A stretch of DNA of 64,000 nt from Cyanobacteria bacterium P01_F01_bin.150 (GCA_039189765.1 JBCCYL010000006.1:32001-96000); one strand, 5' to 3'; positions 2,051 to 16,798 are shown, counted from the first letter of the stretch. Program-made: numbers and translations. Notes: generated from the sequence alone by a model not told the origin.

Positions 2051-2147
2051 TTGACTTTATTCATTTGATTGAAGGTCAGGGTACAGAAATCTCAGCAACG
2101 ACAAACAGTACACACACAACATACATTTGATACTAGGAGGAGTTCCC

Positions 2148-4934
2148 ATGGCTTTTGCCTCAAGTTTCAATCTGGTTAACCTGAATGGCAGTAACGGGTT
2201 TGTTATCAACGGCATTAATGCGGATGACGAATCTGGTTTTTCCGTCAGCGGGGCTGGCGATATTAATGGTGACGGCATTAGCGATCTGATTATTGGCGCG
2301 GATTATGCTGACCCAAATGGAAACTCCAAAGCAGGAGAAAGCTATGTCGTATTCGGTTCCCAAAACGGATTTAGCAATAGTCTGAATCTTTCAGCACTCA
2401 ATGGTAGTAACGGGTTCATCATCAACGGGATTGATCCTGATGATAGAGCTGGTTATTTTGTCAGCAGTGCAGGTGATGTTAATGGTGACGGCCTCAGTGA
2501 CCTGATTATCGGCGCACCTTATGCGGATCCCGACGGGAAGTCTGACGCAGGCGAAGGCTATGTCATATTTGGTTCCCGGAGTAGATTTGGTAGCCGTTTG
2601 AATCTTTCGGCACTCAATGGCAGTAACGGGTTTGTCATCAACGGTATAGACCCTGATGATAACGCCGGTATTGCGGTTAGCAGTGCGGGCGATGTTAATG
2701 GCGACGGCATTGATGACCTGATTATCGCAGCAGATTTTGCAGATCCCGGCGGAAAATCTAATGCAGGGGAAACCTATGTTGTCTTTGGCTCTCGAAGCGG
2801 ATTTGGCCGTAGTTTTAACCTGTCGGCACTCAATGGCAGTAATGGGTTCATCATCAATGGTATTGATGATGATGATAGATCTGGTATTGCTGTCAGCGGC
2901 GCGGGCGATATCAATGGTGACGGTATTAGTGACCTGATTATCGGTTCAGATTATGCTGATCCCAATGGAAAGTCGAACGCAGGGGAAAGCTATGTTGTAT
3001 TTGGCTCCCGGAACGGATTTAGTAATAGTCTGAACCTGTCGGAACTTAATGGTAGTAACGGATTTGTTATCAATGGTATTGATGCTGATGATAACGCGGG
3101 TATTGCTGTCAGCGGTGCGGGCGATATTAATGGTGACGGTATTAGTGATCTGATTATTGGAGCACAGTATGCGGATCCGAATGGAAAATCGAACGCAGGG
3201 GAAAGTTATGTCGTATTTGGGTCCCGGAGCGGATTTGGCCGTAGTCTGAATCTTTCGGCACTTAATGGCAGTAACGGGTTTGTTATCAATGGTATTGATG
3301 CTGATGATAACGCGGGTATTGCTGTCAGCGGCGCGGGCGATATTAATGGTGACGGTATTAGTGATCTAATTATTGGAGCAGATTATGCCGATCCCAATGG
3401 GAATTCCAAAGCAGGGGAAAGCTATGTTATATTTGGCTCCCGGAATGGATTTAGCAGTAGTCTAAACCTATCGACGCTCAATGGCAGTAACGGGTTTGTC
3501 ATCAATGGCATTAATGCTTCTGGCTTTTCTGGCGCTGCTGTCAGCAATGCTGGGGATATCAATAATGATGGGATTGATGACCTGATTATCGGAGCATATG
3601 GAGTTAATTTAGGGAGTAAAAGGAATGCTGGGGCCAGCTATGTGGTTTTTGGCTTGCCCACGGTCAGTATCATTCCGACGATCGCCACAGCAACCGAAGG
3701 CGGCACTCCAGCAAGCGTTACCATTTCTCGTGGGAAGGCCTTTGGGGGCAATTTAGCGGTGAAGCTGACGCTGGCGGGAACTGCTAGCAGCAGCGATTAC
3801 CGCTTTAGCACTGGGACCCTCAACGGTAATGAGCTAACCGTGACGATTCCAGATGGACAAACCAGTGTGGTAGTGGGGGTCACCGCTACAGATGATGCAT
3901 TGATTGAGGCCAACGAGACGTTGACCCTGACGGTGGCGAATAATGCGGCCTACAGTGTCAGTAACACCAATAACAGTAGTAGCCTGACCCTATCGAGTAA
4001 TGATGTCGCGGGGTTCACCCTGGACAAAACGACAGCGACAGTCAGCGAAGCGGGTACCACGGACAGCGTGACGGTGGTGCTGGATGCCCAACCCAGCGCG
4101 GATGTGGTCTTGAGCGTTACCAGTAGTGACACCACAGAAGTGGCGCTCAATCCAACCACACTGACCTTTACCTCCGCGAATTGGAATCAGGCCCAAACGG
4201 TGAATCTAAAGGGAGTCGATGATAACGACGTTGACGTTGACCAGTTGAGCACGGTCACCGTAAGCGTAGTGGATGGCAGCAGTGATGATGCCTTTGATGC
4301 ACTGGCAGACCAAACGATCGCTGTGACCACTACGCTAGCCAATATGGGGACGTTGCCACGGCGTAAGCAAAAGGGCCGAAGCGGCGATCGCATCAAAGGC
4401 ACCCAAAAAGCCGATCGACTCACGGGGACAAAGGATAAAGACATTATCCTGGGCCGTAATGGTAGAGACAAGCTCAAAGGGGGTAACAGTCACGATGATA
4501 TCCGAGGCGGCAAGGGGAATGACAAGCTCTTTGGCGGCAAGGGGAATGACGAGCTTAGGGGTGGCAAGGGTCGGGACCGACTGGTTGGCCAACAAGGCAA
4601 CGATCGTTTAGTGGGTGGTTTGGGCAATGATGTTCTTATCGGTGGTCCAGGTCGGGACACCTATGTTTACCAGAGCCTCAGGGATGGCGTAGATACGATT
4701 AGAAAGTTCGAGGCAAACAAAGATGTTTTCGATCTCACTGAAATCTTCAAGAATTCGATCTTTACAGGTGACAACGATTTCCTCCGGTTTATCAACTATG
4801 TTGAGCTAGCGGAAGTCAACGGCAGCACTGAAGTTCGGGTTGATGCCGATGGCAACGGCAGTGACACCGCAATGATGACCCTAGCGGTGGTCCAGGGTCG
4901 AACCGGACTCAGTTCCACAAACTTTATTCTGTAG
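2148..4934 (+). CDS. FG-GAP repeat (7 x 72 aa) / Calx-beta / RTX secreted protein, paralog of the upstream gene
   Basis: AGGAGG at 2135-2140 precedes ATG 2148. Seven GD(I/V)N(G/N)DG blades with a 216-nt period, then RTX repeats. Confidence 0.92.
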   Translation: MAFASSFNLVNLNGSNGFVINGINADDESGFSVSGAGDINGDGISDLIIGADYADPNGNSKAGESYVVFGSQNGFSNSLNLSALNGSNGFIINGIDPDDRAGYFVSSAGDVNGDGLSDLIIGAPYADPDGKSDAGEGYVIFGSRSRFGSRLNLSALNGSNGFVINGIDPDDNAGIAVSSAGDVNGDGIDDLIIAADFADPGGKSNAGETYVVFGSRSGFGRSFNLSALNGSNGFIINGIDDDDRSGIAVSGAGDINGDGISDLIIGSDYADPNGKSNAGESYVVFGSRNGFSNSLNLSELNGSNGFVINGIDADDNAGIAVSGAGDINGDGISDLIIGAQYADPNGKSNAGESYVVFGSRSGFGRSLNLSALNGSNGFVINGIDADDNAGIAVSGAGDINGDGISDLIIGADYADPNGNSKAGESYVIFGSRNGFSSSLNLSTLNGSNGFVINGINASGFSGAAVSNAGDINNDGIDDLIIGAYGVNLGSKRNAGASYVVFGLPTVSIIPTIATATEGGTPASVTISRGKAFGGNLAVKLTLAGTASSSDYRFSTGTLNGNELTVTIPDGQTSVVVGVTATDDALIEANETLTLTVANNAAYSVSNTNNSSSLTLSSNDVAGFTLDKTTATVSEAGTTDSVTVVLDAQPSADVVLSVTSSDTTEVALNPTTLTFTSANWNQAQTVNLKGVDDNDVDVDQLSTVTVSVVDGSSDDAFDALADQTIAVTTTLANMGTLPRRKQKGRSGDRIKGTQKADRLTGTKDKDIILGRNGRDKLKGGNSHDDIRGGKGNDKLFGGKGNDELRGGKGRDRLVGQQGNDRLVGGLGNDVLIGGPGRDTYVYQSLRDGVDTIRKFEANKDVFDLTEIFKNSIFTGDNDFLRFINYVELAEVNGSTEVRVDADGNGSDTAMMTLAVVQGRTGLSSTNFIL

Positions 4935-7260
4935 ACTCGTTATCTTCTGACAGGAGTGGTTCGAGCAATTCCGCAATCTTGCGATACTGATATCCCCTGG
5001 CTAAGTTCATCAGATATTTTGTTACCGCTGTATGGGGCTTAGGCATGGTTGCCAGTAAATCCTTTACCTGCTGACCATCTAACTTAAATGCGGCTAGATG
5101 TAGCTCATACCGCCAGTCATGGGGCATGGCAGTGAGTTGGGCTGCGATCGCTTTGGGGCTTAAGGGAACCGTTGTGATCACCCTTCTGACTCCTTGAGAC
5201 GCTGCTTTTGCGGCTGACTCAGCTTCGGCAGGGTCTACCTGAACGTTAGCGGTGAAGCTAAAGACAGTTCCTTTCCCCACCTGACTAGAAACCTTGATAT
5301 CTCCTCCCATCAGCTGTACAAGCTGTTTACTAATGGCTAAGCCTAATCCAGTTCCTGTTTTTGTATTTTCACCACTTTCCGTTTGCACAAAAGGCTCAAA
5401 AAGTTTGTGTAGCTCCGATGCTGCAATCCCGTCCCCCGTATCTTCTACTTCAAACCTTAACTCAAGTGCCTGTGGCAGCTGACGATCTTCCACTCGCAGA
5501 ACAATGGTTCCAGCGTGGGTAAATTTGAGGGCATTGCTCAGCAAGTTAATTAGGATCTGCCGCAGCTTGGGGGCATCGCCAATCAGCTTCTGGGGAATCG
5601 TTTGGGAAACCTCAACGACAAACGTCAGTCTCTTTTGTTCCATCCGGATCCGAAACAAGGCCTCAACGGTTTCAATCAAATCCTTCAGCTCAAAGGACTC
5701 TTTATTTAAGGTTTGTTTATCGGATTCCAGTTTCGTTAGGGTCAAAATATCGTTGATTAGCCCCAGGAAATGTTCTCCAGCACTATTAATTGAGCGCACG
5801 CGGCTTTGGTTATTCTCAGAGAGTGTGTGGTCTTGAGCCATGAGCTGACTGAACCCCAAAATAGCGTTGAGCGGAGTACGTAACTCATGACTCATCTGCG
5901 CTAAAAAACGACTCTTGGCTCGACTGGCAGCCTCAGCGGCCTCTCTAGCCTGGCCTAACTCAATATTCGATTGCTGAAGTTTGGCATTGGATTGTTGAAG
6001 TTCTGAGGTACGCTCAGCCACTTTAATTTCCAATTCTGACTTTGCCTGTTCCAGGAGCGCAACCATTTGCTGCTGCGCTTTGATTTTGGTTTGAATAACG
6101 CGATCATATTGATAAAAAGCCGCTAGCCCCGCACTATTCAAAATTAGCCCGGCAGCTGCGGGAACTAAAGGTATCCACCATCCCACCAACAGTGCTAAAT
6201 AGCTGATACCCGTCACCCCAACAGCGCTAATCGAGACCCAAAACAAACTTTGGAGGGGCGATCGCCCATATCTTGCAAACCCAATCCCTAGAAGTCCCCA
6301 GACTAAAATCCATAGATACTCGACCCATTCAGGCCAACTCTTAATCAGAGGACGTTGTTCAAGGGCTGCATGGACAATTTGGCTTGCGGCATGAGCCTGA
6401 ATTTCCACTCCATAGACAAAGTTATCGTCCTGGTTAACGGTGGAGGGGGTAGCGACATTAAAGTGATCCTGGATACTGGAGGCGGTGCTGCCGATTAGGA
6501 CAATGCGATCGCGCACCCATTCAGGGTCGACATTGCCTGCTAAAACATCTCGAAATGAAACCGCCCGAAAGGCATTGGCCCCCTTACGAAAGTTCAGCAG
6601 CATTTGCATATCAGCTCCCCCCGCATTCGTGCCAACGTAGCTACCAAAATTTGCATAAACTCGGGGCAACTCAGCCTTACCAAATCTCATGGTGGAGCGA
6701 TCGCGCACCCCACTTTCCAATGGAATCCCTTCAGCGTCTAAATACGCCTTGGCTAGCAATAGGCCCAGGGAAAATCGAAATCCCCCATCCGTCTGCACAC
6801 CTAACATCGCCCGCCGTAGTCGACCATCCTCATCTGGAGGAACATCAACAAACCCAATCTGATCAGAGGGGAGGTTGGGCGGTGGTGCAACTTTTGGCGG
6901 CAAAACCCGTTCAATCCCGATTAGGTTGTCCATCGACTGCATTGTCATCGCCAATTCAGAGTAGCCCGGCTCAACGGGCAAATCTCTAAATAAATCAAGG
7001 CCGATGGCACGGGGCTGATGGCGCTGCAGATTTTGCAGCACTAGGGCCAACTGTTGATCAGGAATCGGATAGGTCCCTACTGCTCGAATCGATTGCTCAT
7101 CAATGCCTACTAGCAAGAGCCGCTCGTCTGGGGATTCAGAGGGGTGCGATCTTAAAAAGGCATCCAAAATCCGCCACTCTAATAATTGAAACGCCCCGGC
7201 TAATCGTCCCCCTATAATCAGCAGCAAAAACAGCAAGCCGGATAGCAGCCCAAACTGCAT
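4924..7260 (-). CDS. CHASE2-domain membrane sensor histidine kinase
   Basis: CHASE2 motifs (LLVGIDE, AIGLDLFRD, YGVEIQA), 3 TM helices, H-box FLAQMSHELRTPLNAI, HATPase G boxes. Start uncertain: ATG 7260 chosen, ORF open to 7482. Confidence 0.88.
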   Translation of the reverse strand: MQFGLLSGLLFLLLIIGGRLAGAFQLLEWRILDAFLRSHPSESPDERLLLVGIDEQSIRAVGTYPIPDQQLALVLQNLQRHQPRAIGLDLFRDLPVEPGYSELAMTMQSMDNLIGIERVLPPKVAPPPNLPSDQIGFVDVPPDEDGRLRRAMLGVQTDGGFRFSLGLLLAKAYLDAEGIPLESGVRDRSTMRFGKAELPRVYANFGSYVGTNAGGADMQMLLNFRKGANAFRAVSFRDVLAGNVDPEWVRDRIVLIGSTASSIQDHFNVATPSTVNQDDNFVYGVEIQAHAASQIVHAALEQRPLIKSWPEWVEYLWILVWGLLGIGFARYGRSPLQSLFWVSISAVGVTGISYLALLVGWWIPLVPAAAGLILNSAGLAAFYQYDRVIQTKIKAQQQMVALLEQAKSELEIKVAERTSELQQSNAKLQQSNIELGQAREAAEAASRAKSRFLAQMSHELRTPLNAILGFSQLMAQDHTLSENNQSRVRSINSAGEHFLGLINDILTLTKLESDKQTLNKESFELKDLIETVEALFRIRMEQKRLTFVVEVSQTIPQKLIGDAPKLRQILINLLSNALKFTHAGTIVLRVEDRQLPQALELRFEVEDTGDGIAASELHKLFEPFVQTESGENTKTGTGLGLAISKQLVQLMGGDIKVSSQVGKGTVFSFTANVQVDPAEAESAAKAASQGVRRVITTVPLSPKAIAAQLTAMPHDWRYELHLAAFKLDGQQVKDLLATMPKPHTAVTKYLMNLARGYQYRKIAELLEPLLSEDNESTE

Positions 7261-7505
7261 CCCGTGACGACCTCCAGTCCGCTGATGTTTGCCCAATGAA
7301 AAACTCCAATGCCCAAATCGGATGTCAGTTGCCACAAGCACTTTAAAAAAATTTAAATCAAAAACCGGAATGGTCCCCAATACTCTGGAATTTATAAGGA
7401 AGCATCTAAAACACCAAAGATGAAGAGGACTATTCCCCCTTCTCTTCGCGATTCTCTGCACTACCCAATGATAGCTAACCATTTTAGCCCGTTAGGAGTT
7501 TAAAT

Positions 7506-8333
7506 TTGCGCAAGTTAATCTTAGATCTATTCCTTGGCCCCTCTGTTAAACGGTTATTTGGGTTCCGCATTAAGACGGACCGATTGAACGATGGTGTCGA
7601 TGCTTTGCGCCCACGCAATTGGCTTCAAGGTAGGCCCCGTCAACTGGCAGCAGGTCTATTCTTTACCTCTTTGACGATGGTTCCTGCCACTGCATGGGCT
7701 CAACCCTATCAACCCCCTACGGGAGATCCCCCGAGTGGTTCTATTTTATCGAGTGGAACCCGTGATAGCTGTGGCGAAAACTATGAGATTCCGCTAACGG
7801 TTTTGGCCCCAGCTCAGCACGTGGGGCAAACCAGTACCACGACTCCAACGCTCACTTGGTTTGTGCCAACCACCGATTCTTATCGCATCCAGCTTTCCCT
7901 TTACACGATTCATGACAATCAGCCGCCTGCATTACTACAGCAAATTCAGTACGTAGAAGATGACGCAGGAATCGTCAGTTTTACGCTGCCAGAGGAAGAG
8001 TTCCAGCTCAATCCAGGGCAGCGTTATCTGTGGGAGGTGAACCTTGCCTGCACGCCAGACGCTCCTATGTATAGCCAACTGTTTGTTTCCGAGTTAGAGA
8101 TCCAAGAACCGTCTGCCTCGCTGCTTTCGGGTATTGCGGCCGCTCAAACACCGCTGGAAAGAGCGGAAATTTATGCGGGTGCGGGGTACTGGTATGACAC
8201 CCTACGCGAAGCTTTAATTGCTGCCCAAAATCCAGATACTGATGATTTAGCAAGGTCTTTACTGTATCAGTTGGCTGAGTCTGAAGGGGGTATACATGGT
8301 CAGTTTTTAACCCAAATCGCAGACACAATGTAA
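7506..8333 (+). CDS. DUF928 domain-containing exported protein
   Basis: Signal-like segment ending AWA, then PYQPP..GTR..C, LTVLAP, PTLTWFVP, G.RY.W and YA.AG.WYD motifs typical of DUF928. Divergent from the CHASE2 gene. Exact start uncertain. Confidence 0.85.
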   Translation: MRKLILDLFLGPSVKRLFGFRIKTDRLNDGVDALRPRNWLQGRPRQLAAGLFFTSLTMVPATAWAQPYQPPTGDPPSGSILSSGTRDSCGENYEIPLTVLAPAQHVGQTSTTTPTLTWFVPTTDSYRIQLSLYTIHDNQPPALLQQIQYVEDDAGIVSFTLPEEEFQLNPGQRYLWEVNLACTPDAPMYSQLFVSELEIQEPSASLLSGIAAAQTPLERAEIYAGAGYWYDTLREALIAAQNPDTDDLARSLLYQLAESEGGIHGQFLTQIADTM

Positions 8334-8696
8334 ATGTAGTGGTTCCTCAGGCGAGGAAAAAGATTTATCTGTCGCGGCAGGTGGATCAGCAGTTGCGGCA
8401 ATTGTGTCGGGAAGGGGAGTTTGCTTCCACCCAGTCAAGATATCAAGTAATTTATTGATGATTAAAGGGTCGCGATCGCTTGTGGCGATTCAGATGGAGG
8501 CGATCGTCTTTGGGTGAAAGAGGGGGCGATCGCCTCTTAAGGATTAGGTGCAGCCCAGAACCTCCGCTTCTTTCAGGCCAAAGACTATCAGGGGATCTTC
8601 TCTCATCGCTAGGAGGCGTGATCGCCCATCTTTATCAGCTAATTCTTCTCATCCAACCAAACCCTCTCTGGATTTGGCACCAAAGAACTGGCAGCC

Positions 8697-9038
8697 TTAC
8701 CTGCGGACATTGTGTAGCATCAAACTCATGTTACTACCAGTTCCCCCTGTGGGTGGTGGCGTCCCTGCATCGGGAGGTGGAACATAGGGTACGCTTTTAT
8801 TTTGGATATGAGTAGCTGAGATATGAGTAGCTGGGATATTTCCGAGAAGGATCGCATGAACGGGTAGGGCAAATGATGACATTCCTAAAAGGGAAACGCT
8901 AGAGGCGATCGCCCTACCCGTAATCCATCGTAGGCTGGGCTGAAGAGTTGGCTTGATTGCGGAGGTTACATTGATTGCTTTGGGCAAACACGATGTAGAC
9001 ATGGAGGCTAAGGGATTAGATGGAATGTTAATGACCAT
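8697..9038 (-). CDS. small putative secreted Pro/Gly-rich peptide precursor
   Basis: 113-aa ORF with a hydrophobic stretch ending LPVHA and a PYVPPPDAGTPPPTGGTGSN motif resembling the neighbouring DUF928 N-terminus. Confidence 0.6.
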   Translation of the reverse strand: MVINIPSNPLASMSTSCLPKAINVTSAIKPTLQPSLRWITGRAIASSVSLLGMSSFALPVHAILLGNIPATHISATHIQNKSVPYVPPPDAGTPPPTGGTGSNMSLMLHNVRR

Positions 9039-9251
9039 TTTTTGGCAACAAAGAAAGAGAACCTTCGAACTCAGTGTCCAAGAAGATGGAATCAGTCTGT
9101 CTTGTTCTAACTGTAGTGGGACTCGATAGCAGAAACCTCATAAAACTCATCCCCTGACCCCATAAGAAATCTCATAAATAGGTTTTGACCTTAACCGAAA
9201 CGAAATAACGGAAAATCAGTGAGCTTCGCCACGAGAAAGCAGCCAATTTTT

Positions 9252-9290
9252 GCGTAGGATGGGTTACGCTGTCGCTAACACACCCTACGC
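9252..9290. repeat. GTAG-type REP-like palindrome
   Basis: GCGTAGGATGGGTTA...TAACACACCCTACGC imperfect hairpin, related to the copies at 10821 and 30344. Confidence 0.6.
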
Positions 9291-9444
9291 TGTAGATAAA
9301 CTAATTTTTTCGAGGTACGGACATAATGGCTAACGAGAAAGTAAATAAATATCTCGTTTGGGCTATCCATTACTGTGTAAGGATATATGGTCGTAAGTAG
9401 AATCAAATATAGCCCTTACCATCTAAAGTGTGTCCTAAAATTCC

Positions 9445-10788
9445 ATGAATCTCGATTCGCTCCTTGAGGTTGTTAATTGCAACTTGATAGAGGGCAACAG
9501 TCGTCCTCTGAGTTCTCCAGAGGTAATAATTCTGCGAGGTGTTTGGCAGTACCAAACCTATACCCAGATTGCATTAGAGGAAGGTTATAGTTCTGGTTAC
9601 TTTACTAATGTAGTGGCTCCAGAACTGTGGAAGCGCTTGTCTCAGCTAACGGGGCAACATATCACCAAAAAAAATTGCCGCAAGTTGCTAGAGGGCTATG
9701 CTGAAGCCCAGCAGAATCGACCAGTGACGCTGGTAGAAACTAGCGACAACGCACCTAGAGTGGAGCATCAGGGTAATAGTGGTGTCGTTCGATATCCGAG
9801 TGGTTCTGTTCCCCTGGATTCTCCCCATTACATGGAGCGATCGCCCGTTGAGACCCAAGCCTATGACGAAATCCAAAAACCGGGAGCACTTATCCGCATT
9901 AAAGCCCCCCAGGAGATGGGAAAAACATCATTGCTTCTACGAATTTTAGATCGAGCCAATGCGTTAGGCTATCGCACGGTGAGTCTAAATGTGCAGCAGG
10001 TGGATGAGTCGATTCTTCAAGACCTCAACCGCTTTTTGCGATGGCTTTGTGCCAATGTCACCCGTCAACTCAAGTTAACCTCAAAGCTAGATGACTATTG
10101 GGATGAAGATATTGGCGGCAAAATTAGCTGTACGCTTTATTTCCAAGACTATTTACTGGAGGACGTGAAAGAGCCGTTTGTGCTGGCGTTGGATGAGGTC
10201 AATCAGCTTTTTGAACATCCACAGGTGGCTAAAGATGTATTGCCATTGTTGCGATCGTGGTATGAAGAGGCGAAGCGATTGCCCATTTGGCGCAAGTTGC
10301 GATTGGTTGTGGTGCATTCCACCGAAATTTATGTGCCCCTGAATCTAAAGCAGTCCCCCTTTAATGTGGGGTTACCGCTACAGTTAGAGTGTTTCAATCC
10401 AGACCAAATTGAACAATTAGCTCAGCAGTATGGGTTGAATTGGCAAAACGATGAGGCTCAACAGTTAATGACCCTGGTGGGCGGACATCCGGCCCTCGTT
10501 AATATTGCCCTGTATCATCTCAGTTGTAATGAGATTACCCTAGAACAACTGTTGGAAACAGCTAATCAAACGACGGGGATTTATCATTCCCATCTCCAGC
10601 GGCATCGGGCACGATTAGAGGAGCAGCCTGAATTACGCCTCAGTTTAGATGCGATTACTGCGGCGGCGGAGCCTGTTTCGTTAGAACCCATGATTACCTA
10701 TCAGCTATACAGCATGGGGTTGATTAAACAGGTGGGCGATAAGGTGATGCCAAGCTGTGAGTTATATCGATCGTCGTTCGCGCATTAG
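9445..10788 (+). CDS. N-terminal winged-HTH + AAA-like (AAA_35) NTPase protein
   Basis: N-terminal ILRGVW..QTY.QIA...LWKRLS HTH-like block, YPSGSVPLDSP.Y.ER, Walker A-like KAPQEMGKTS, Walker B LALDEV, SPFNVG and GGHP motifs. Confidence 0.85.
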   Translation: MNLDSLLEVVNCNLIEGNSRPLSSPEVIILRGVWQYQTYTQIALEEGYSSGYFTNVVAPELWKRLSQLTGQHITKKNCRKLLEGYAEAQQNRPVTLVETSDNAPRVEHQGNSGVVRYPSGSVPLDSPHYMERSPVETQAYDEIQKPGALIRIKAPQEMGKTSLLLRILDRANALGYRTVSLNVQQVDESILQDLNRFLRWLCANVTRQLKLTSKLDDYWDEDIGGKISCTLYFQDYLLEDVKEPFVLALDEVNQLFEHPQVAKDVLPLLRSWYEEAKRLPIWRKLRLVVVHSTEIYVPLNLKQSPFNVGLPLQLECFNPDQIEQLAQQYGLNWQNDEAQQLMTLVGGHPALVNIALYHLSCNEITLEQLLETANQTTGIYHSHLQRHRARLEEQPELRLSLDAITAAAEPVSLEPMITYQLYSMGLIKQVGDKVMPSCELYRSSFAH

Positions 10789-10899
10789 GGATGTGCGGGG
10801 AAATCACATACCAATGTTGCGTAGGATGGGCAAAACGAATGTGTGCCCATCAGCCAAACGTTTTGATGGGCACGTCCTATCGTCCTTTGCCCATCCTAC
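10786..10899. repeat. REP/MITE-like nested palindromic element (partial outer arm)
   Basis: GTAGGATGGGCAAA(10821)...TTTGCCCATCCTAC(10899) with an inner hairpin. Near-identical to 30344-30422, including the upstream TAGGG..GCGGG.AAAT.ACATACCAAT arm. Confidence 0.85.
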
Positions 10900-10948
10900 T
10901 CCCGGTACTAGCCCACCTAAACGATACACAACAGCTCAAATTAGGATC

Positions 10949-13900
10949 ATGCTAAAACTTCAAGGGATTCAGATCAGGGAAACACTTTTCTCCAGTGATA
11001 AAACAGTGGTTTATCGAGGGATGAGCACAAAAGATGAGCGATCGCTCATCCTCAAGTTTCTGAACCTTCAGTACCCCTCTTTGAATAACCTGGCTCAGTA
11101 TAGACAAGAGCATAGCATTCTTAACTCTTTAAATTCTGACAGTGTCATAAAGACTTATGGCATTCAAGAGTACGAAAATAGTTTGGTGATCTTTTTAGAA
11201 GATTTTGGCGGCAGTTCCTTAAAAGAGATCGTCTCAGAAACAACATTCGGTTTAGATGATTTTCTGTCGATCGGAATTGACCTGGCGCAGGGCTTAGCGG
11301 ATATTCACAGCGCTAACATTATTCATAAAGATATTAATCCATCTAATATCGTTTACAACCCTGACACTAAGCAAGCAAAGCTCATTGACTTTGGCATTTC
11401 TACGATCTTATCCAACGAAGCCTCTGTTGCATGTCCCCCACGCAAAATACAGGGAACGTTGCCTTATATTTCTCCTGAACAGACGGGGCGAATGAATCGA
11501 GTTATTGACTATCGAACGGATTTTTATTCCCTGGGGATCAGCCTATATGAACTGTTGACCTGCCAACTGCCCTTTCAGACCAATGACGTCATGGAATTGG
11601 TGCATTGTCATATTGCCAAATCCCCTGAGCCTCCCCATCGTTTAATCGGAGAAGAGCGGTGCCCCAGAATCGTTTCAGATATTATTATGAAGCTGCTCTC
11701 GAAGACTGCTGAGGACCGTTATCAAAGTGCCTTGGGTCTGAAAGCTGACCTGGAAAGTTGCCTGGAACAGCTCCGCCAAAGCGGCCATATTTCCAGTTTT
11801 GTCCTCGCTAGTCGTGATATGGTGAGCACGTTTCAGATTCCCCAGAAGCTTTACGGGCGAGAGCCGGAGGTTCAGGCTCTTTTAGCGAGCTTTGAGAGTG
11901 CGAGTCAAGGACAATCTGAGACCGTCTTGATTGCAGGCTATTCAGGAATTGGTAAATCCGCATTAGTCAATGAAATTCATAAACCCATTCTTCAAAAGAA
12001 GGGATATTTTATTGCGGGTAAGTTTGATCAAGTGAATCGAGATACGCCGTATGATGGGTTTGTTCATGCCTTCAAAGATTTAATCCATCAGCTATTAACG
12101 GAGAGTGAAGATCAGATTGATGCCTGGAGAGATCAAATTTTAGAAGCCCTTGGCGATAATGTTCAGGTTATTTTAGGCGTGATCTCTGAGCTGGAATTAA
12201 TTCTGGGGCCGCAACAATATACTCCAGCATTAGAGGTGATTGAAGACCAAAATCGATTCAATTTATTTTTCCAAAAAATCATTCAAGTCTTTGCGACAGA
12301 TACCCATCCTCTCGTCATTTTTTTAGATGATCTACAGTGGGCAGATTCAGCGTCTTTAAGATTACTGAAATTATTGGCGACGAATCACATTGAGAGTAAG
12401 TCTTTACTGATTATTGGAGCTTATAGAGATAATGAAGTGTCGGAAAATAGTCTTGTGGGTATCACCTTAAATGATATTTTTCAGGACTCCACTACCGTCA
12501 AGACCATTACGCTGGCTCCTCTCAAAATTAATGAAGTCAATCGTCTAGTGGCCGATACCCTGAAGTCACCACCCGAAAGAATAGGGTTATTGGCTGACAT
12601 CATCTTTAGTAAAGCCAATGGGAACCCATTTTTCACTATTCAGTTGCTAAAGTCACTTTACGACGATAACAGCATCTTTTTTGGACTGTCTGATGCAGGG
12701 GAAACCCAAAACGCTTGGCAATGGAATCTTGAACAAATCCAACAAGCAAGTATTACCGATAATGTGGTCGATCTTTTATTAAAGAGGATCGCCAAACTAG
12801 ATGAGAAAGGACAACATCTTTTAAGCGTAGCGGCGTGTATTGGCAATCACTTTACCCTTGATACATTGTCATCTGTTACAGAGGCTGCTGTTACAGATGA
12901 CCCTTTGCCCTCTTTACTCGCTGGCCTTTGGCAATCTATTCAGGATGAGTTGATTATCCCGTTAGACAATGCAAAAGAACTTTCCGTACTATTGAACTCC
13001 AGTAGAGATCAACGTATAGAGTTATTGGGTGACCCAGATCCCAGGGTTCTTAAAGAACCCTGGGATCTAAATCCGGCCTATGTCAGTGCCATTGATCTGA
13101 GCTCTGTTTCATATAAATTTTTGCATGATAGAGTGCAGCAAGCGGCCTATACGCTCTCCTCTGATTCCTATCACAAAGAAATTCATTATAGAATTGGCAT
13201 CTTTTTACTGAATAAATATAGAAATAACAATCTCAACAAACATATATTTGATGTTGTAAATCACCTCAATATCGGCGTTGATCATCTTTCTGAAAGGGAA
13301 AGAGCAGAACTTGTTGAGTTGAATCTGACGGCGGCTAAAAAAGCGAAATCGACAACCGCCTACGAACTAGCCCTCGAATATTGTCAGGCCAGCTTAGCCC
13401 TCCTCAAGGTGGATTCTTGGTTAACTCAATACCCATTGACCTTAGAAATATACATCAACACGATAGAGACCCAGGTATTGACCGGAGATTACCATGATGC
13501 AGATACTCTTTTAGAGATTGTCTTAGATCATGTTAGAGATAAACTAGACGAAATTAGAATCTACGAAATTAAAATAAAGTCATTATTTTCACAATACTTC
13601 TTGGAAGAGGCTATAGACGTTTCCCTTATCGCCTTAGAAAAGTTAGGGTTTATTAAGATAAAGCCAGTAGAAAATCCATCAATTTTAGTAGGGACATTAC
13701 GTAGACGGTTGACGTTGAAGAATCAGGAAATAGAGGACTTAGAACACTTCCCCTCTATGGACAATCCCTATCAGATTGCATCTCTTAGAATTGTCTTAAC
13801 GGTTATGCCTCCCCTATATCTTATTAAGGCAGACCTGCTTCCTTCGGCCATCTGTTCAATGGCGACGCTTTGTATAAAGTATGGAAATTCTTCCCTCTCT

Positions 13901-16798
13901 CCTGTTGTTTATGCTTGGCTTGCTTTGTATCTGTGTGGAACTTTTGGGGATATTGATTCTGGAATACGGCTCTCAACCGTATCTTTAAAATTACTGAGAA
14001 AGAATCGCCATCCAAGTATTGTTACCAAAGTTTTATCTATGATCCCTGGCGCTGTTACTCATTGGAAAGAACCTATTCAGACAACCATTACCCCTTTGCG
14101 GGAAGCCTTTCTAACAGGCATTGAGGTGGGTGATATCGAATATGCTTCTCAGGCATCTATTATATATTGCCAAAGCCTTGTTTTTGCGGGTGAGCCATTG
14201 GATTTTGTTTATGGACAATATCAAGAGCACTTTGCTTTTGTGAATAAGTTCAAGCAATCTTATTTTATTTTATACATCAAGATAATTCAAGAAATAGTAA
14301 TAAGTTTGGTCGATGAGGCCCATTCTGATGACAGGATAGATTTAGATGATGCCATCGAAATGGTGAAAGGGAATGGAGGTGGAGGTACACTAACAGCAAC
14401 TTATTTGTCTTTAATAATTATAAACTACTTTTCGAAAGCATATACTTGTTCTTTGAACTCTGCTTTAGAAGGAAAAAAGTATAAGAACTATGCTATGGAG
14501 CTTAGTATGAGACCTCAAACTAATTTTTATTCTTCCCTTTCAATCTTGGCATATTGTGCCATGGAGCAAGCATCTCACAATAGGAATGACTTGCTAAAAG
14601 AAGTACTCTCCAACCAAAAAGATATGCGTCGTTGGGCAAAGCATTCTCCCGAGAACTTCCAGCACAAGCATGATTTGGTTGAAGCCGAAAAAGCAAGGGT
14701 TTTAGGAAAAATATTAAAGGCTGAAGAACTGTATGAGAAATCAATTCAAGGCGCGAAAAAGAATAAATTTATTCATGAAGAGGCGTTAGCCTATGAACGA
14801 GCGGGTGAGTTTTATCTCTCTTTAGATCGAGAAGAAATTGGCAGGCTTTACTTAAAAAAATCCCATCACTGCTATTCCCGCTGGGGCGCAACCGCGAAAG
14901 TAAAGCAAATGGAAGCCGAATACCCCCATTATTTTGTCGGTTCATCCCAAAAAGGACTCTCTCGTTATAGTCGTACAACCACCACCACTACAACGACAGA
15001 AACCGAGGGCACAGATTTAGATTTAGCGACGATTCTTAAGGCCTCTCAAACGATTTCTAGTGAAATAAGGCTAGCCAGCCTTCTAGAGAAATTGATTGCG
15101 ATTTTAATTGAAAATGCAGGGGCACAAACAGGCATTCTCATCTTAAATAGTGATGGCAATTGGTATATCGAAGCGAAAGGAAGCCTCAATGAGGATACGA
15201 CGCTTCTCCAATCGATCCCCATACACTGGATCGATCCTGAGACATCGGCACCTACTTTACCTGCAACCATCATTAATTACATTAGTCATACTCAAGAAAC
15301 GATTGTTTTAGACGATGCGGTAAATCAAGGACAATTTACGACTGATCCCTATATTGTCGCTCATCAAAGTCAGTCAATCCTGTGTACCCCGTTGCTCAAC
15401 CAAGGGCAGTTAAAAGGGATGATCTATTTGGAAAATAACGTAACCACTGGAGCCTTTACCGCAGACCGGGTCGAATTGCTCAATATCTTGGCAGCTCAAG
15501 CGGCGATCGCCATCGATAATTCCAGACTCTACCAAACCCTAGAACAACGGGTAGAAGAGCGCACCAAAGAATTATCCCAAACCTTGGATGTTTTGAAAGC
15601 AACCCAGGCCGAACTGATCTTTGAAAATGACCTGCTCAGAGACGATAGCCAACCCTCAACCTTCAATTACCAAGTCGGGGGCAGTCTGCCGATGGATTCT
15701 CCAACCTATGTCGTCCGCTCCGCCGATCGCACCCTCTACAAAACCCTTAGCCAAGGGGAATTTTGTTATGTCCTCAATGCGCGGCAGATGGGCAAATCCA
15801 GTCTGATGGTGCGGATGATGAATCATCTCCAAAGCGAAGGCGTGAATTGTGCCGCCATTGATATGACGCGGATTGGTAGCGAAAACATCACCCCTGAGCA
15901 ATGGTATAAAGGACTGGCCGTAGAACTCTGGCGGAGCTTCGGCTTACTGCGAAAAGTGAACCTGAAAAAGTGGTGGGGCGATCGCCTCGATATTTCCCCC
16001 ATTCAGCGCTTAGGCCAGTTTATAGAAGAAGTGATCCTCGTCGAGGTCAGCAAAGACGCTGAAGACGCCCCCTCTTCCCAAAAGATTGTCTTATTTATCG
16101 ATGAAATTGACAGCGTTTTGGGCTTAGATTTCCCCGTCAGCGACTTCTTCCGCCTGATTCGCTCCTGCTACAACCAACGCACGCTGATGCCGGAGTATCA
16201 GCGATTAACCTTTGCCTTCTTTGGAGTCGCTACCCCATCGGAATTGATTAGCGATCGCCGCCTTACCCCCTTCAATATTGGCCAAGCGATTCAACTCGAC
16301 GGCTTTAAAGAACATGAAGCCCAGCCCCTGCTCAACGGCCTCACCGATAAAGTCACCAATCCCCAAGTCCTCTTAAAAGAAATCCTGCACTGGACCGGAG
16401 GACAACCCTTCCTCACCCAAAAAGTCTGTGAATTCATTCGCCAATCCTCTGAACCCATCCCCATCAACCAAGAAGCCGCCTGGGTTGAAGCCCTAGTGCG
16501 AAAAAATATCATCGAAAATTGGGAAGCCCAGGATGAACCGGAGCATTTAAAGACGATACGCGATCGCATCCTTAAAAACGACCAATATACCCCCCAACTC
16601 CTGACCCTCTATCAACAAGTCCTCAACCAACCAGAGGTGATAGCAACTGATAGCGCAGAAGAGAAGGAGCTAGTGTTATCAGGCTTGGTGATCAAGGAAG
16701 ATAGTATTCTGAAGGTCCGTAACCAAATTTATCTAGAAATCTTTAATCGACCATGGATAGAGAATGCATTATTCGTCTTCGCTTTAACTCTCGATTGA
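10949..16798 (+). CDS. HstK-like Ser/Thr kinase - AAA ATPase - GAF protein with a C-terminal AAA_35 domain
   Basis: IIHKDINPSN, LIDFG and YISPEQTGRMN kinase motifs; GYSGIGKS Walker A and FLDDLQWAD; GAF (SILCTPL, IYLEN); C-terminal YQVGGSLP, NARQMGKSS, FIDEID. ATG 10949 preferred because the upstream extension is repeat DNA. Confidence 0.9.
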   Translation: MLKLQGIQIRETLFSSDKTVVYRGMSTKDERSLILKFLNLQYPSLNNLAQYRQEHSILNSLNSDSVIKTYGIQEYENSLVIFLEDFGGSSLKEIVSETTFGLDDFLSIGIDLAQGLADIHSANIIHKDINPSNIVYNPDTKQAKLIDFGISTILSNEASVACPPRKIQGTLPYISPEQTGRMNRVIDYRTDFYSLGISLYELLTCQLPFQTNDVMELVHCHIAKSPEPPHRLIGEERCPRIVSDIIMKLLSKTAEDRYQSALGLKADLESCLEQLRQSGHISSFVLASRDMVSTFQIPQKLYGREPEVQALLASFESASQGQSETVLIAGYSGIGKSALVNEIHKPILQKKGYFIAGKFDQVNRDTPYDGFVHAFKDLIHQLLTESEDQIDAWRDQILEALGDNVQVILGVISELELILGPQQYTPALEVIEDQNRFNLFFQKIIQVFATDTHPLVIFLDDLQWADSASLRLLKLLATNHIESKSLLIIGAYRDNEVSENSLVGITLNDIFQDSTTVKTITLAPLKINEVNRLVADTLKSPPERIGLLADIIFSKANGNPFFTIQLLKSLYDDNSIFFGLSDAGETQNAWQWNLEQIQQASITDNVVDLLLKRIAKLDEKGQHLLSVAACIGNHFTLDTLSSVTEAAVTDDPLPSLLAGLWQSIQDELIIPLDNAKELSVLLNSSRDQRIELLGDPDPRVLKEPWDLNPAYVSAIDLSSVSYKFLHDRVQQAAYTLSSDSYHKEIHYRIGIFLLNKYRNNNLNKHIFDVVNHLNIGVDHLSERERAELVELNLTAAKKAKSTTAYELALEYCQASLALLKVDSWLTQYPLTLEIYINTIETQVLTGDYHDADTLLEIVLDHVRDKLDEIRIYEIKIKSLFSQYFLEEAIDVSLIALEKLGFIKIKPVENPSILVGTLRRRLTLKNQEIEDLEHFPSMDNPYQIASLRIVLTVMPPLYLIKADLLPSAICSMATLCIKYGNSSLSPVVYAWLALYLCGTFGDIDSGIRLSTVSLKLLRKNRHPSIVTKVLSMIPGAVTHWKEPIQTTITPLREAFLTGIEVGDIEYASQASIIYCQSLVFAGEPLDFVYGQYQEHFAFVNKFKQSYFILYIKIIQEIVISLVDEAHSDDRIDLDDAIEMVKGNGGGGTLTATYLSLIIINYFSKAYTCSLNSALEGKKYKNYAMELSMRPQTNFYSSLSILAYCAMEQASHNRNDLLKEVLSNQKDMRRWAKHSPENFQHKHDLVEAEKARVLGKILKAEELYEKSIQGAKKNKFIHEEALAYERAGEFYLSLDREEIGRLYLKKSHHCYSRWGATAKVKQMEAEYPHYFVGSSQKGLSRYSRTTTTTTTTETEGTDLDLATILKASQTISSEIRLASLLEKLIAILIENAGAQTGILILNSDGNWYIEAKGSLNEDTTLLQSIPIHWIDPETSAPTLPATIINYISHTQETIVLDDAVNQGQFTTDPYIVAHQSQSILCTPLLNQGQLKGMIYLENNVTTGAFTADRVELLNILAAQAAIAIDNSRLYQTLEQRVEERTKELSQTLDVLKATQAELIFENDLLRDDSQPSTFNYQVGGSLPMDSPTYVVRSADRTLYKTLSQGEFCYVLNARQMGKSSLMVRMMNHLQSEGVNCAAIDMTRIGSENITPEQWYKGLAVELWRSFGLLRKVNLKKWWGDRLDISPIQRLGQFIEEVILVEVSKDAEDAPSSQKIVLFIDEIDSVLGLDFPVSDFFRLIRSCYNQRTLMPEYQRLTFAFFGVATPSELISDRRLTPFNIGQAIQLDGFKEHEAQPLLNGLTDKVTNPQVLLKEILHWTGGQPFLTQKVCEFIRQSSEPIPINQEAAWVEALVRKNIIENWEAQDEPEHLKTIRDRILKNDQYTPQLLTLYQQVLNQPEVIATDSAEEKELVLSGLVIKEDSILKVRNQIYLEIFNRPWIENALFVFALTLD
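13034..13069. repeat. 36-bp palindromic element inside the kinase CDS
   Basis: CCAGATCCCAGGGTTCTTAAAGAACCCTGGGATCTA has a perfect 15-bp stem. An identical copy lies at 33317-33352. Confidence 0.9.

Follow-up and report, generated by a model that had tools for sequence, protein, structure and literature searches.

Does a short open reading frame (ORF) with a signal-like segment and a Pro/Gly-rich motif, lying between a CHASE2 kinase/DUF928 gene pair and two AAA_35 genes, form a peptide-signalling circuit with these four neighbours? The question is raised by a locus in a stretch of 64,000 nucleotides from Cyanobacteria bacterium P01_F01_bin.150 (GCA_039189765.1 JBCCYL010000006.1:32001-96000), here called the window, in which positions are counted from the first letter. 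Its source genome (G000) is a 10.6-Mb assembly of 350 contigs, each labelled with C and a number. An earlier interpretation made without database searches (the sequence-only reading) had proposed such a circuit. Our analysis leaves little doubt that the locus consists of two modules and an ORF that is derived from DUF928 and retains only the tail of this protein. Beyond that, we lean towards a reading in which the mini-ORF next to the two adjacent modules encodes a DUF928 signal plus tail, the tail being an arginine-centred cassette of which exported free copies exist. All five ORFs lie where the sequence-only reading had put them, and both divergent pairs and the spacer of 406 nucleotides between mini-ORF and AAA_35 gene are as it described them:

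4924-7482, minus strand: CHASE2-HisKA-HATPase_c sensor histidine kinase, 852 amino acids (Pfam)
7506-8333, plus strand: DUF928 protein, predicted to be exported, 275 amino acids (Pfam)
7701-7763, plus strand: N-terminal tail motif of the DUF928 protein, QPYQPPTGDPPSGSILSSGTR (alignment of paralogues)
8697-9038, minus strand: mini-ORF of 113 amino acids, derived from a DUF928 N-terminus only (tblastn homology)
8730-8789, minus strand: motif of the mini-ORF, PYVPPPDAGTPPPTGGTGSN (alignment and blastn end point)
9039-9444, no strand: spacer of the divergent pair of mini-ORF and helix-turn-helix (HTH)-AAA_35 gene (ORF map)
9445-10788, plus strand: NTPase with HTH_VMAP-M9 and AAA_35 domains, here called type A, 447 amino acids (Pfam and precomputed annotation)
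10757-16798, plus strand: giant Ser/Thr kinase-AAA_16-helical region-GAF-AAA_35 protein, here called type B, 2013 amino acids (Pfam)
10793-10900, no strand: high-copy dispersed repeat after the type A stop codon and ahead of the ATG at which the giant kinase probably begins (contig depth)

Where does the mini-ORF come from? Its product had been described as a small secreted peptide. It is no independent invention but derives from the N-terminus of a DUF928 protein. In a tblastn search of the source genome, residues 1-102 align with a full-length DUF928 protein on contig C218 at 51% identity (E 5e-24), and 77 nucleotides coding for the motif are 86% identical to C218 DNA by blastn, with the match ending at about position 8733. 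The protein alignment stops at …TGGTGS: the C218 protein goes on with RGGC… into the DUF928 domain, whereas the mini-ORF goes on with N-MSLMLHNVRR-stop. The mini-ORF thus consists of an N-terminal extension, a signal-like segment, the motif, ten unrelated residues and a stop, and it has asparagine where the DUF928 family has a near-invariant arginine. Since the alignment with the full-length paralogue runs into the motif, the likeness in P-Y-x-P-P…G-[ST] is due to homology and not to convergence. No Pfam family was assigned to the 113-residue product. Nor did we find a DUF928 remnant on the minus strand of 8000-8760, searched in three frames with a hidden Markov model (HMM) built from the paralogues at E values up to 100, and a six-frame Pfam search of the genome gave no DUF928 downstream of the mini-ORF. 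A scan of 8250-9500 for promoters and terminators returned no match to a sigma-70-like promoter and a single terminator-like site (8687-8664, minus strand), with 1.1 expected.

The Pro/Gly pattern that the sequence-only reading had noticed in both products is indeed more than chance, as it represents an N-terminal tail that is conserved across the DUF928 family, located behind a predicted export signal. In the window protein, the signal-like segment, judged from sequence, ends with AWA|Q, and the chain reads AWA|QPYQPPTGDPPSGSILSSGTRDSC. Most of the 37 DUF928 matches in the genome carry [FY]xPPxxGxPx(3-7)GG[ST]R ahead of the Pfam domain. When 29 DUF928 paralogues are aligned, the tail arginine (R21) is one of the few positions with a conservation of 90% or more, and in most DUF928 rows a cysteine follows 2-5 residues past it (3 residues in the window protein). 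An AlphaFold model of the mature window protein (mean predicted local distance difference test score (pLDDT) 83.7, predicted template modelling score (pTM) 0.80) shows a body composed of a seven-strand beta-sandwich (strands 42-134) and a five-helix bundle (helices 139-209). Tail residues 1-21, up to the arginine, have a pLDDT below 50, so that the tail is probably flexible, and in the model it makes no contact with the body. The closest solved structure is the C-terminal domain of MtxA (4Z29; E 1.9e-5, TM score 0.49-0.59), and a PDB sequence search with DUF928 matched no chain. A DUF928 paralogue on C84 carries four tandem cassettes, every one ending with SR. At this locus (L051, C84:39902-41153), the gene of the paralogue possesses a start and a signal segment of its own, a CHASE2 hybrid kinase is encoded downstream, and a separate ORF of 51 residues, made up of signal and cassette, lies just upstream.

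Alternatively, the tail could serve DUF928 in maturation or targeting, for example in folding, in forming a disulfide with the adjacent cysteine or in the hand-over to an outer-membrane or secretion partner, with the mini-ORFs as irrelevant by-products. This would agree with the position of the motif, always directly behind the export signal and ahead of the conserved cysteine, and with the two-partner secretion genes that often occur in the modules, such as the one on C173. However, the tandem cassettes on C84 and the free cassettes ending at the arginine described below are hard to explain on these grounds, and the tail is predicted to be disordered without touching the protein body. We consider such a role improbable and prefer to regard the tail as a modular cassette.

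Is the mini-ORF maintained outside of its own genome? Two short homologues came out of a word-indexed search that covered 5.8 billion protein clusters and was restricted to lengths of 62-198 amino acids. P0002 (103 amino acids, 73% identical) ends exactly with …TGGTGSR, and P0003 (116 amino acids, 65% identical), which carries an in-frame insertion of 8 amino acids, ends with …TGGTGSNFRGDV. The sequence YVPPPDAGTPxPTGGTGS is invariant in the three short proteins and identical in the C218 protein save for one D-to-E exchange; in the four-row alignment Y85-S102 is invariant save for one position, and the remainder of the ORF is about 70% identical. Contigs of relatives from sequencing runs X2-X5 were aligned to the window at a nucleotide identity of at least 80%. 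Single contigs from two studies (X3 and X4) span the region from the mini-ORF to the start of the AAA_35 gene, and X2 and X5 provide shorter separate contigs on the mini-ORF or on the spacer. The X4 contig contains an in-frame insertion of 24 nucleotides that fits P0003. All in all, the short ORF does carry the motif behind a signal-like segment, as had been proposed, and in two relatives the frame is open and the motif invariant. The contigs of the relatives cease to match the window at about 8725, the point where the C218 homology ends. Within the spacer, 9177-9336 (160 nucleotides) is skipped by the X3 and X4 contigs and 9178-9332 by X2; this part of the spacer is therefore a recent insert. 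It holds a dispersed repeat (9254-9290), a hairpin-like element of about 33 nucleotides that occurs on dozens of contigs of the source genome and in other cyanobacterial genomes. A DNA search of 30 relatives with 7500-10000 returned only the dispersed repeat and pieces of AAA_35.

Tail-only ORFs also occur elsewhere in the source genome. The N-terminal windows of the 37 DUF928 proteins were compared by blastp with all stop-to-stop frames of at least 40 amino acids, with reversed frames as control. Frames outside of DUF928 genes numbered 12 against 2 reversed ones at E<1e-2, and 5 against 0 at E<1e-3. Nine candidates combine a signal-like segment with the motif, namely the window's ORF and about eight others. 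The matches and weaker candidates are:

Window, 8697-9038, minus strand: the mini-ORF of the locus (blastp E 1e-13)
C7:154628-154948: mini-ORF, stops right after Arg (blastp E 3e-6)
C252:138-371: mini-ORF, stops right after Arg (blastp E 2e-4)
C334:256-453: mini-ORF (blastp E 2e-4)
C262:6056-6355: mini-ORF, stops right after Arg (blastp E 3e-3)
C173:10874-11128: mini-ORF, stops right after Arg (blastp E 6e-3)
C159:13844-14011: frame without signal segment, probably junk (blastp E 5e-3)
C126: weaker candidate, the only non-DUF928 frame with at least 18 bits by motif HMM
C84:40950-41153: weaker candidate, just upstream of the tandem-cassette DUF928 gene
C15:87556-87717: weaker candidate

Four of the seven short motif hits (C7, C252, C262 and C173) stop exactly after the arginine, for which the random chance is about 3/64 per ORF. 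A hydrophobic window of 15 residues scoring at least 2.0 near the start is found in seven of the nine candidates versus 8.6% of 21,131 control frames; the window's mini-ORF is the weakest of the nine in this respect, with a score of 1.6. Three ORFs that end with …RRE[PA]GGTR-stop have nothing in common outside the motif. Behind the mini-ORFs, neither a DUF928 remnant nor a shared element 3' of the stops was found. On C252 a hairpin with a T-run, recognised by eye, follows the stop, and the ORF stands in front of a subtilase-RTX gene. The C173 mini-ORF lies beside a two-partner secretion protein and a TPR-CHAT protease, with a DUF928/CHASE2 pair 1.7 kb away, and that on C262 is convergent with the gene of an LRR-TPR-CHAT protease. 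The C7 mini-ORF, which ends with …GNGTSSDQR-stop, is located between a giant nSTAND1-WD40 gene and an IS630-family transposase (locus L052, C7:154628-156085), and repeat copies of the transposase element start 106 nucleotides past its stop. None of the other mini-ORFs has an AAA_35 gene nearby.

What could such free tails do? Module 1 comprises the CHASE2 histidine kinase and the exported DUF928 protein with its export signal, a flexible tail followed by a cysteine, and an MtxA-like body. In the reading towards which we lean, the tail would be an exposed modular cassette acting via its arginine. CHAT domains belong to the caspase/separase clan (clan CD), several members of which cut after arginine. 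Most likely, the Arg-directed caspase-like (CHAT) proteases that accompany this system would recognise or cut the tail at this residue; this explanation is the most economical because it accounts at once for the affiliation of CHAT with this clan, the tandem cassettes and the free copies that end at the arginine. Such a cut would release or expose a peptide ending with …GG[ST]R, and the mini-ORFs may represent exported free cassettes, i.e. product mimics, substrates or competitors in a DUF928/CHASE2/CHAT pathway. The window's copy, with asparagine in place of the arginine, would be a variant that resists cleavage or acts as a decoy, or else one in decay. An extended version of this idea is a many-channel extracellular peptide system of cyanobacteria: exported CHAT proteases would cut the DUF928 cassettes after the arginine, each paired CHASE2 protein would sense either the …GG[ST]R peptide set free in this way or the neo-terminus, and genes for free, 'pre-cut' cassettes would tune or jam the channels, while the TPR arm of the protease might grip the free C-terminal arginine. 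We regard this version as rather unlikely.

Several points weigh against the interpretation of the mini-ORFs as exported free cassettes. Cleavage at the arginine is deduced from the specificity of clan CD proteases, and the adjacency of CHAT genes to mini-ORFs is only moderately unlikely by chance because the genome has 124 CHAT matches. A truncated pseudogene would retain the signal peptide, too. An HMM of the motif built from 33 sequences gave as many matches on reversed as on real frames and was dropped as a detector, for which reason the candidates on C15 and C84 are statistically weak. The pattern LGLPxRRE[PA]GGTR-stop was found in G000 only and in none of 400 other cyanobacterial genomes, and the C7 mini-ORF has no homologue among the 5.8 billion clusters. 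Two of the three short copies, the window's and P0003, have asparagine instead of the arginine. In the X4 relative, 64 of 452 positions (about 14%) differ in ORF and spacer versus 52 of 939 (5.5%) in the AAA_35 core. These figures are rough mismatch counts from the contig of one relative, and they imply that, apart from the motif, the ORF changes at roughly the rate expected of unconstrained DNA. A short orthologue was not found in 17 genomes of the order, where all matches were to full-length DUF928 frames and confined to their motif part. In a profile search of 1.84 billion representatives the short family remained a single 50% cluster: the six hits comprised this cluster, the full-length DUF928 relatives P0126, P0127 and P0129, and P0125 and P0128, which were dropped on inspection as repeat-driven and spurious. 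Two loci from a metagenome scan (L043 and L044) were likewise discarded, as they encode unrelated proteins with only YVPPPDAG-like words in common. Finally, a search of sequencing runs found no RNA run covering 7400-10900, and all mini-ORFs are known from sequence alone.

Some of these points would be expected if the mini-ORF were the dead remnant of a DUF928 5' end, created by partial duplication or deletion and too young to have decayed, and if the other mini-ORFs were similar debris. The abrupt end of the homology to the full-length paralogue, the loss of the key arginine in two of three short homologues, a divergence that is close to neutral overall and the lack of deep conservation in our searches all fit this explanation. 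So do the IS630-type transposase 106 nucleotides behind the C7 mini-ORF, the 160-nucleotide insert and dispersed repeats flanking the window's copy, and the richness of the source genome in paralogues and repeats. On the other hand, three diverged copies have remained open through in-frame insertions or deletions with a motif of 18-19 residues unchanged, and a stop exactly after the arginine in four of seven short hits and also in P0002 contrasts with about 5% expected per ORF. Debris would also hardly account for three …RRE[PA]GGTR-stop ORFs that have only the motif in common, or for the failure to find a DUF928 remnant behind any of the mini-ORFs. Overall, a remnant is possible without being probable, and that the window's mini-ORF is a working gene is plausible but falls just short of probable as well.

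How firmly does the DUF928 protein belong to the CHASE2 kinase? The kinase scores 232.8 bits for CHASE2 (residues 85-400), 65.3 for HisKA and 101.4 for HATPase_c in Pfam, and it is the top-scoring of the 46 CHASE2 matches in the genome; its true start is likely M75 at position 7260. The 275-residue protein next to it matches DUF928 (PF06051) with 107.7 bits against a cut-off of 26. In agreement with the sequence-only reading, the two families are tightly associated in the source genome, where 33 of 37 DUF928 hits have a CHASE2 hit within 3 kb and, conversely, 32 of 46 CHASE2 hits are that close to a DUF928 hit. The window's pair is one of about 33 such pairs. Full-length DUF928 genes on C218 and C78 stand behind TPR-CHAT genes without any CHASE2. 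Among the 37 best CHASE2 proteins, about 25 have CHASE2 at the C-terminus, where it follows an N-terminal region of about 360-620 (once about 1220) amino acids, in which weak CHAT/caspase-like matches were seen in about 20 proteins and AAA_35 in three. A complex prediction for the periplasmic CHASE2 domain (residues 10-308 of A4) and mature DUF928 (A3) scored 0.14 against a mark of 0.32 and was not used as evidence. The literature is nearly silent on DUF928, and our literature search turned up one exception, a paper whose excerpts note a CHASE2/DUF928/WD40 cluster in Nostoc punctiforme and cite an acid-stress response of Synechocystis sll1891 (PMC5587647).

The second module consists of the two AAA_35 genes. 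The type A protein matches AAA_35 with 493.9 bits, and its P-loop and Walker B residues are conserved (in 59 rows, G159 and K160 are invariant and the conservation of D250 and E251 is at least 90%). The homologues at E<=1e-10 number more than 5,600, with PF26355+PF14516 as their precomputed domain combination. The N-terminal domain corresponds to PF26355, named HTH_VMAP-M9 and described in the Atlas as 'vWA-MoxR associated protein N-terminal HTH'. This assignment is based on an Atlas feature score of 0.92, structural TM scores of 0.82-0.92 over residues 1-95 and the precomputed Pfam annotation of this protein and of more than 100 homologues. Our local Pfam collection, which lacks the HTH_VMAP-M9 model, gave nothing for residues 1-117, and a PDB sequence search with the AAA_35 protein gave nothing usable. 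In the structural model (pLDDT 88.3) the chain begins with five helices, continues through a disordered linker (92-112) into the NTPase and closes with a winged helix at the C-terminus. The label 'wHTH' of the sequence-only reading needs correction: an HTH domain is present at the N-terminus, but it is all-helical and not demonstrably winged, and the predicted winged helix lies at the C-terminus. The best fold matches are the archaeal proteins PAB2304 (2qen) and SSO1545 (2fna), followed by Avs3, the plant NRC protein NRC4, CED-4 and ORC/Cdc6. The giant type B protein had been labelled a Ser/Thr kinase-AAA_35 protein. Both domains are there (Pkinase 127.1 bits, C-terminal AAA_35 118.3 bits), but the label is incomplete, as AAA_16 (154.8 bits) and GAF (53.9 bits) are present, too. 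NCBIfam added to the Pfam results for the window proteins only generic kinase matches, all below the cut-off.

Both types recur in the source genome, which has 21 type A genes (about 290-496 bits, about 450-500 amino acids, with an N-terminal domain) and about 20 type B genes (70-126 bits). Eleven of the 21 type A genes are flanked by a type B gene. The 17 type B proteins that were scanned fall into AAA_35-WD40 proteins (6), AAA_35 followed by GAF domains (1), AAA_35-(cyclase)-CHASE2 or AAA_35-CHASE2 fusions (3), proteins whose region behind AAA_35 is unassigned (6, including one with just a faint beta-propeller match) and a Kinase-AAA_16-GAF-AAA_35 protein (1, on C121) with the architecture of the window's giant kinase. 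The three CHASE2 fusions are located at C18:28835-31780, C129:18365-21091 and C30:4355-7108 (loci L063-L065), and one of them has a class III cyclase domain in between. For comparison, 79 type A loci with their flanks were fetched from other cyanobacterial genomes. A type B gene was detected by HMM in 27 of these loci, and in seven more the fetched flank breaks off within a giant-kinase homologue before its AAA_35 end, which brings the total to 34; homologues of the giant kinase occur in 11 of the 79. CHASE2 was found in five foreign loci, three of which are type B-CHASE2 fusions (L110, L113 and L115), and DUF928 in two. The AAA_35 genes encode a STAND/ORC-like NTPase pair with a constant, HTH-bearing partner and a variable, sensor-rich partner, and this gene pair recurs independently of module 1.

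Do the two modules and the mini-ORF nevertheless act together? According to the sequence-only reading, the HTH-AAA_35 protein turns on the peptide gene from the spacer, and the CHASE2 kinase reads the exported peptide in competition with the DUF928 tail. The genes are contiguous, the peptide and AAA_35 genes are divergent, and this arrangement is kept in close relatives. The three AAA_35-CHASE2 fusions in the source genome, one of which has DUF928 nearby, and those in three of the 79 foreign loci also link the two families, and in L097, the locus most similar to the window, CHASE2 and DUF928 lie upstream of type A. However, an unrelated gene of 306 amino acids separates the modules in L097. 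In the source genome, the window locus and the fusion on C30 are the only places where AAA_35 comes within 3 kb of one of the 37 DUF928 matches. A survey of gene neighbourhoods had been suggested as a check on this circuit and came out negative, since none of the 79 foreign HTH-AAA_35 loci has a motif-bearing mini-ORF in a blastp search with reversed control or by a regular expression for the C-terminus; the two were found together only in close relatives of at least 80% nucleotide identity. Control of the mini-ORF by the HTH-AAA_35 protein thus lacks comparative backing, with DUF928 at two and CHASE2 at five of these foreign loci, and the absence of AAA_35 genes near the other mini-ORFs and a spacer that is partly a recent insert without a detectable promoter-like site add to this. 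The AAA_35 pair recurs alone with quite different neighbours. The five genes do not make up one circuit, and we consider the proposed signalling loop very improbable. The HTH-AAA_35 gene is a neighbour of the mini-ORF and not its demonstrated regulator. Adjacency should be interpreted with caution in a genome of 10.6 Mb with 37 DUF928, 46 CHASE2, 49 AAA_35 and 124 CHAT matches. On C78 (35997-41019, locus L053) the two module families are joined in a different manner, as behind a type A gene there come the genes of a TPR-CHAT protease (998 amino acids) and of a DUF928 protein, the latter interrupted by an in-frame TAA.

The two modules, considered separately, resemble known systems in part. The likeness of DUF928 to MtxA of magnetotactic bacteria covers both the beta-sandwich and the helical part (192-194 aligned columns), but sequence identity is only 16% and no match exists at the sequence level in the PDB. 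CHASE2 receptors are found in the adenylate cyclases of Sinorhizobium meliloti, as the excerpts of one paper state (PMC13001267), and passages of Kaur et al. 2021 deal with EACC2-caspase proteins in which CHASE2 is C-terminal, and regard CHASE2 as a small-molecule receptor (PMC8195603). The arrangement is comparable in that an extracytoplasmic sensor is fused to varied outputs, here kinases, caspase-like domains and AAA_35. In contrast, DUF928 is absent from the searched text of both papers, and the passages of PMC8195603 propose no protein or peptide partner. The words VMAP-M9 and AAA_35 do not appear in Kaur et al. 2020 (PMC7159879). For the AAA_35 genes, paired STAND/NLR NTPases with sensor and helper offer themselves as a parallel: the AAA_35 model matches such folds (E 3e-10 to 1e-5), and the genes come as one constant member next to one variable, sensor-rich member. 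Unlike those pairs, the AAA_35 pair has no recognised immune effector, its constant member bears HTH_VMAP-M9 and its variable member is a Ser/Thr kinase with GAF.

With regard to the mini-ORF, two kinds of peptide systems invite comparison. Yeast alpha-factor and plant CLE precursors are multi-copy peptide precursors that are cut at basic residues. The tandem cassettes of the C84 paralogue, with basic-residue ends and behind an export signal, resemble them, except that in the paralogue a folded domain follows the cassettes, whose processing would be hypothetical. PatX of cyanobacteria has a signal-like N-terminus and an RG(S/T)GR motif at or near its C-terminus. PatS, HetN and PatX are, like the mini-ORF products, small products of cyanobacterial genes, and the activity of the former resides in a short motif containing glycine and arginine. 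The excerpts of a paper on heterocystous cyanobacteria describe that these three peptides act via RG(S/T)GR on HetR (PMC7761841). However, the RG[ST]GR pentapeptide is found neither in the mini-ORF (…TGGTGSN…) nor in its relatives (…TGGTGSR or …TGGTGSN); the motif here is GG[ST]R, the window's copy is devoid of the arginine, and PatS-type peptides act on a cytoplasmic protein whereas the mini-ORFs stem from an exported one. DUF928 was already a candidate partner of CHASE2 owing to the tight pairing of the two families. The tail-only mini-genes are the new element of this analysis. They delimit the likely active unit to about 20 residues ending with GG[ST]R, suggest the arginine as a processing or recognition point and supply a concrete candidate peptide as input of the CHASE2 sensor.

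Some minor observations concern the surroundings of the two modules. The repeat at 10793-10900 stands out by a summed contig depth of 732-2333 in four runs compared to about 2-80 in the adjoining bins, and some contigs show joints of 36 nucleotides at this place that lead back ('goes back' joints). The true start of the giant kinase is likely the ATG at 10949 behind this repeat. Directly adjoining the CHASE2 kinase, the plus strand encodes a protein of 935 amino acids (2127-4934) that contains seven FG-GAP repeats and, at its C-terminus, RTX nonapeptide repeats, and is probably a secreted calcium-binding surface protein. On the other side, at 17089-19569 on the minus strand, a hybrid histidine kinase is encoded in which Pfam identifies a Tll0287-like sensor, HAMP and a receiver domain. 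Its final approximately 100 residues resemble, by eye, the tail with which the CHASE2 kinase ends (…P[KH]DW…LL.T[LM]P…).

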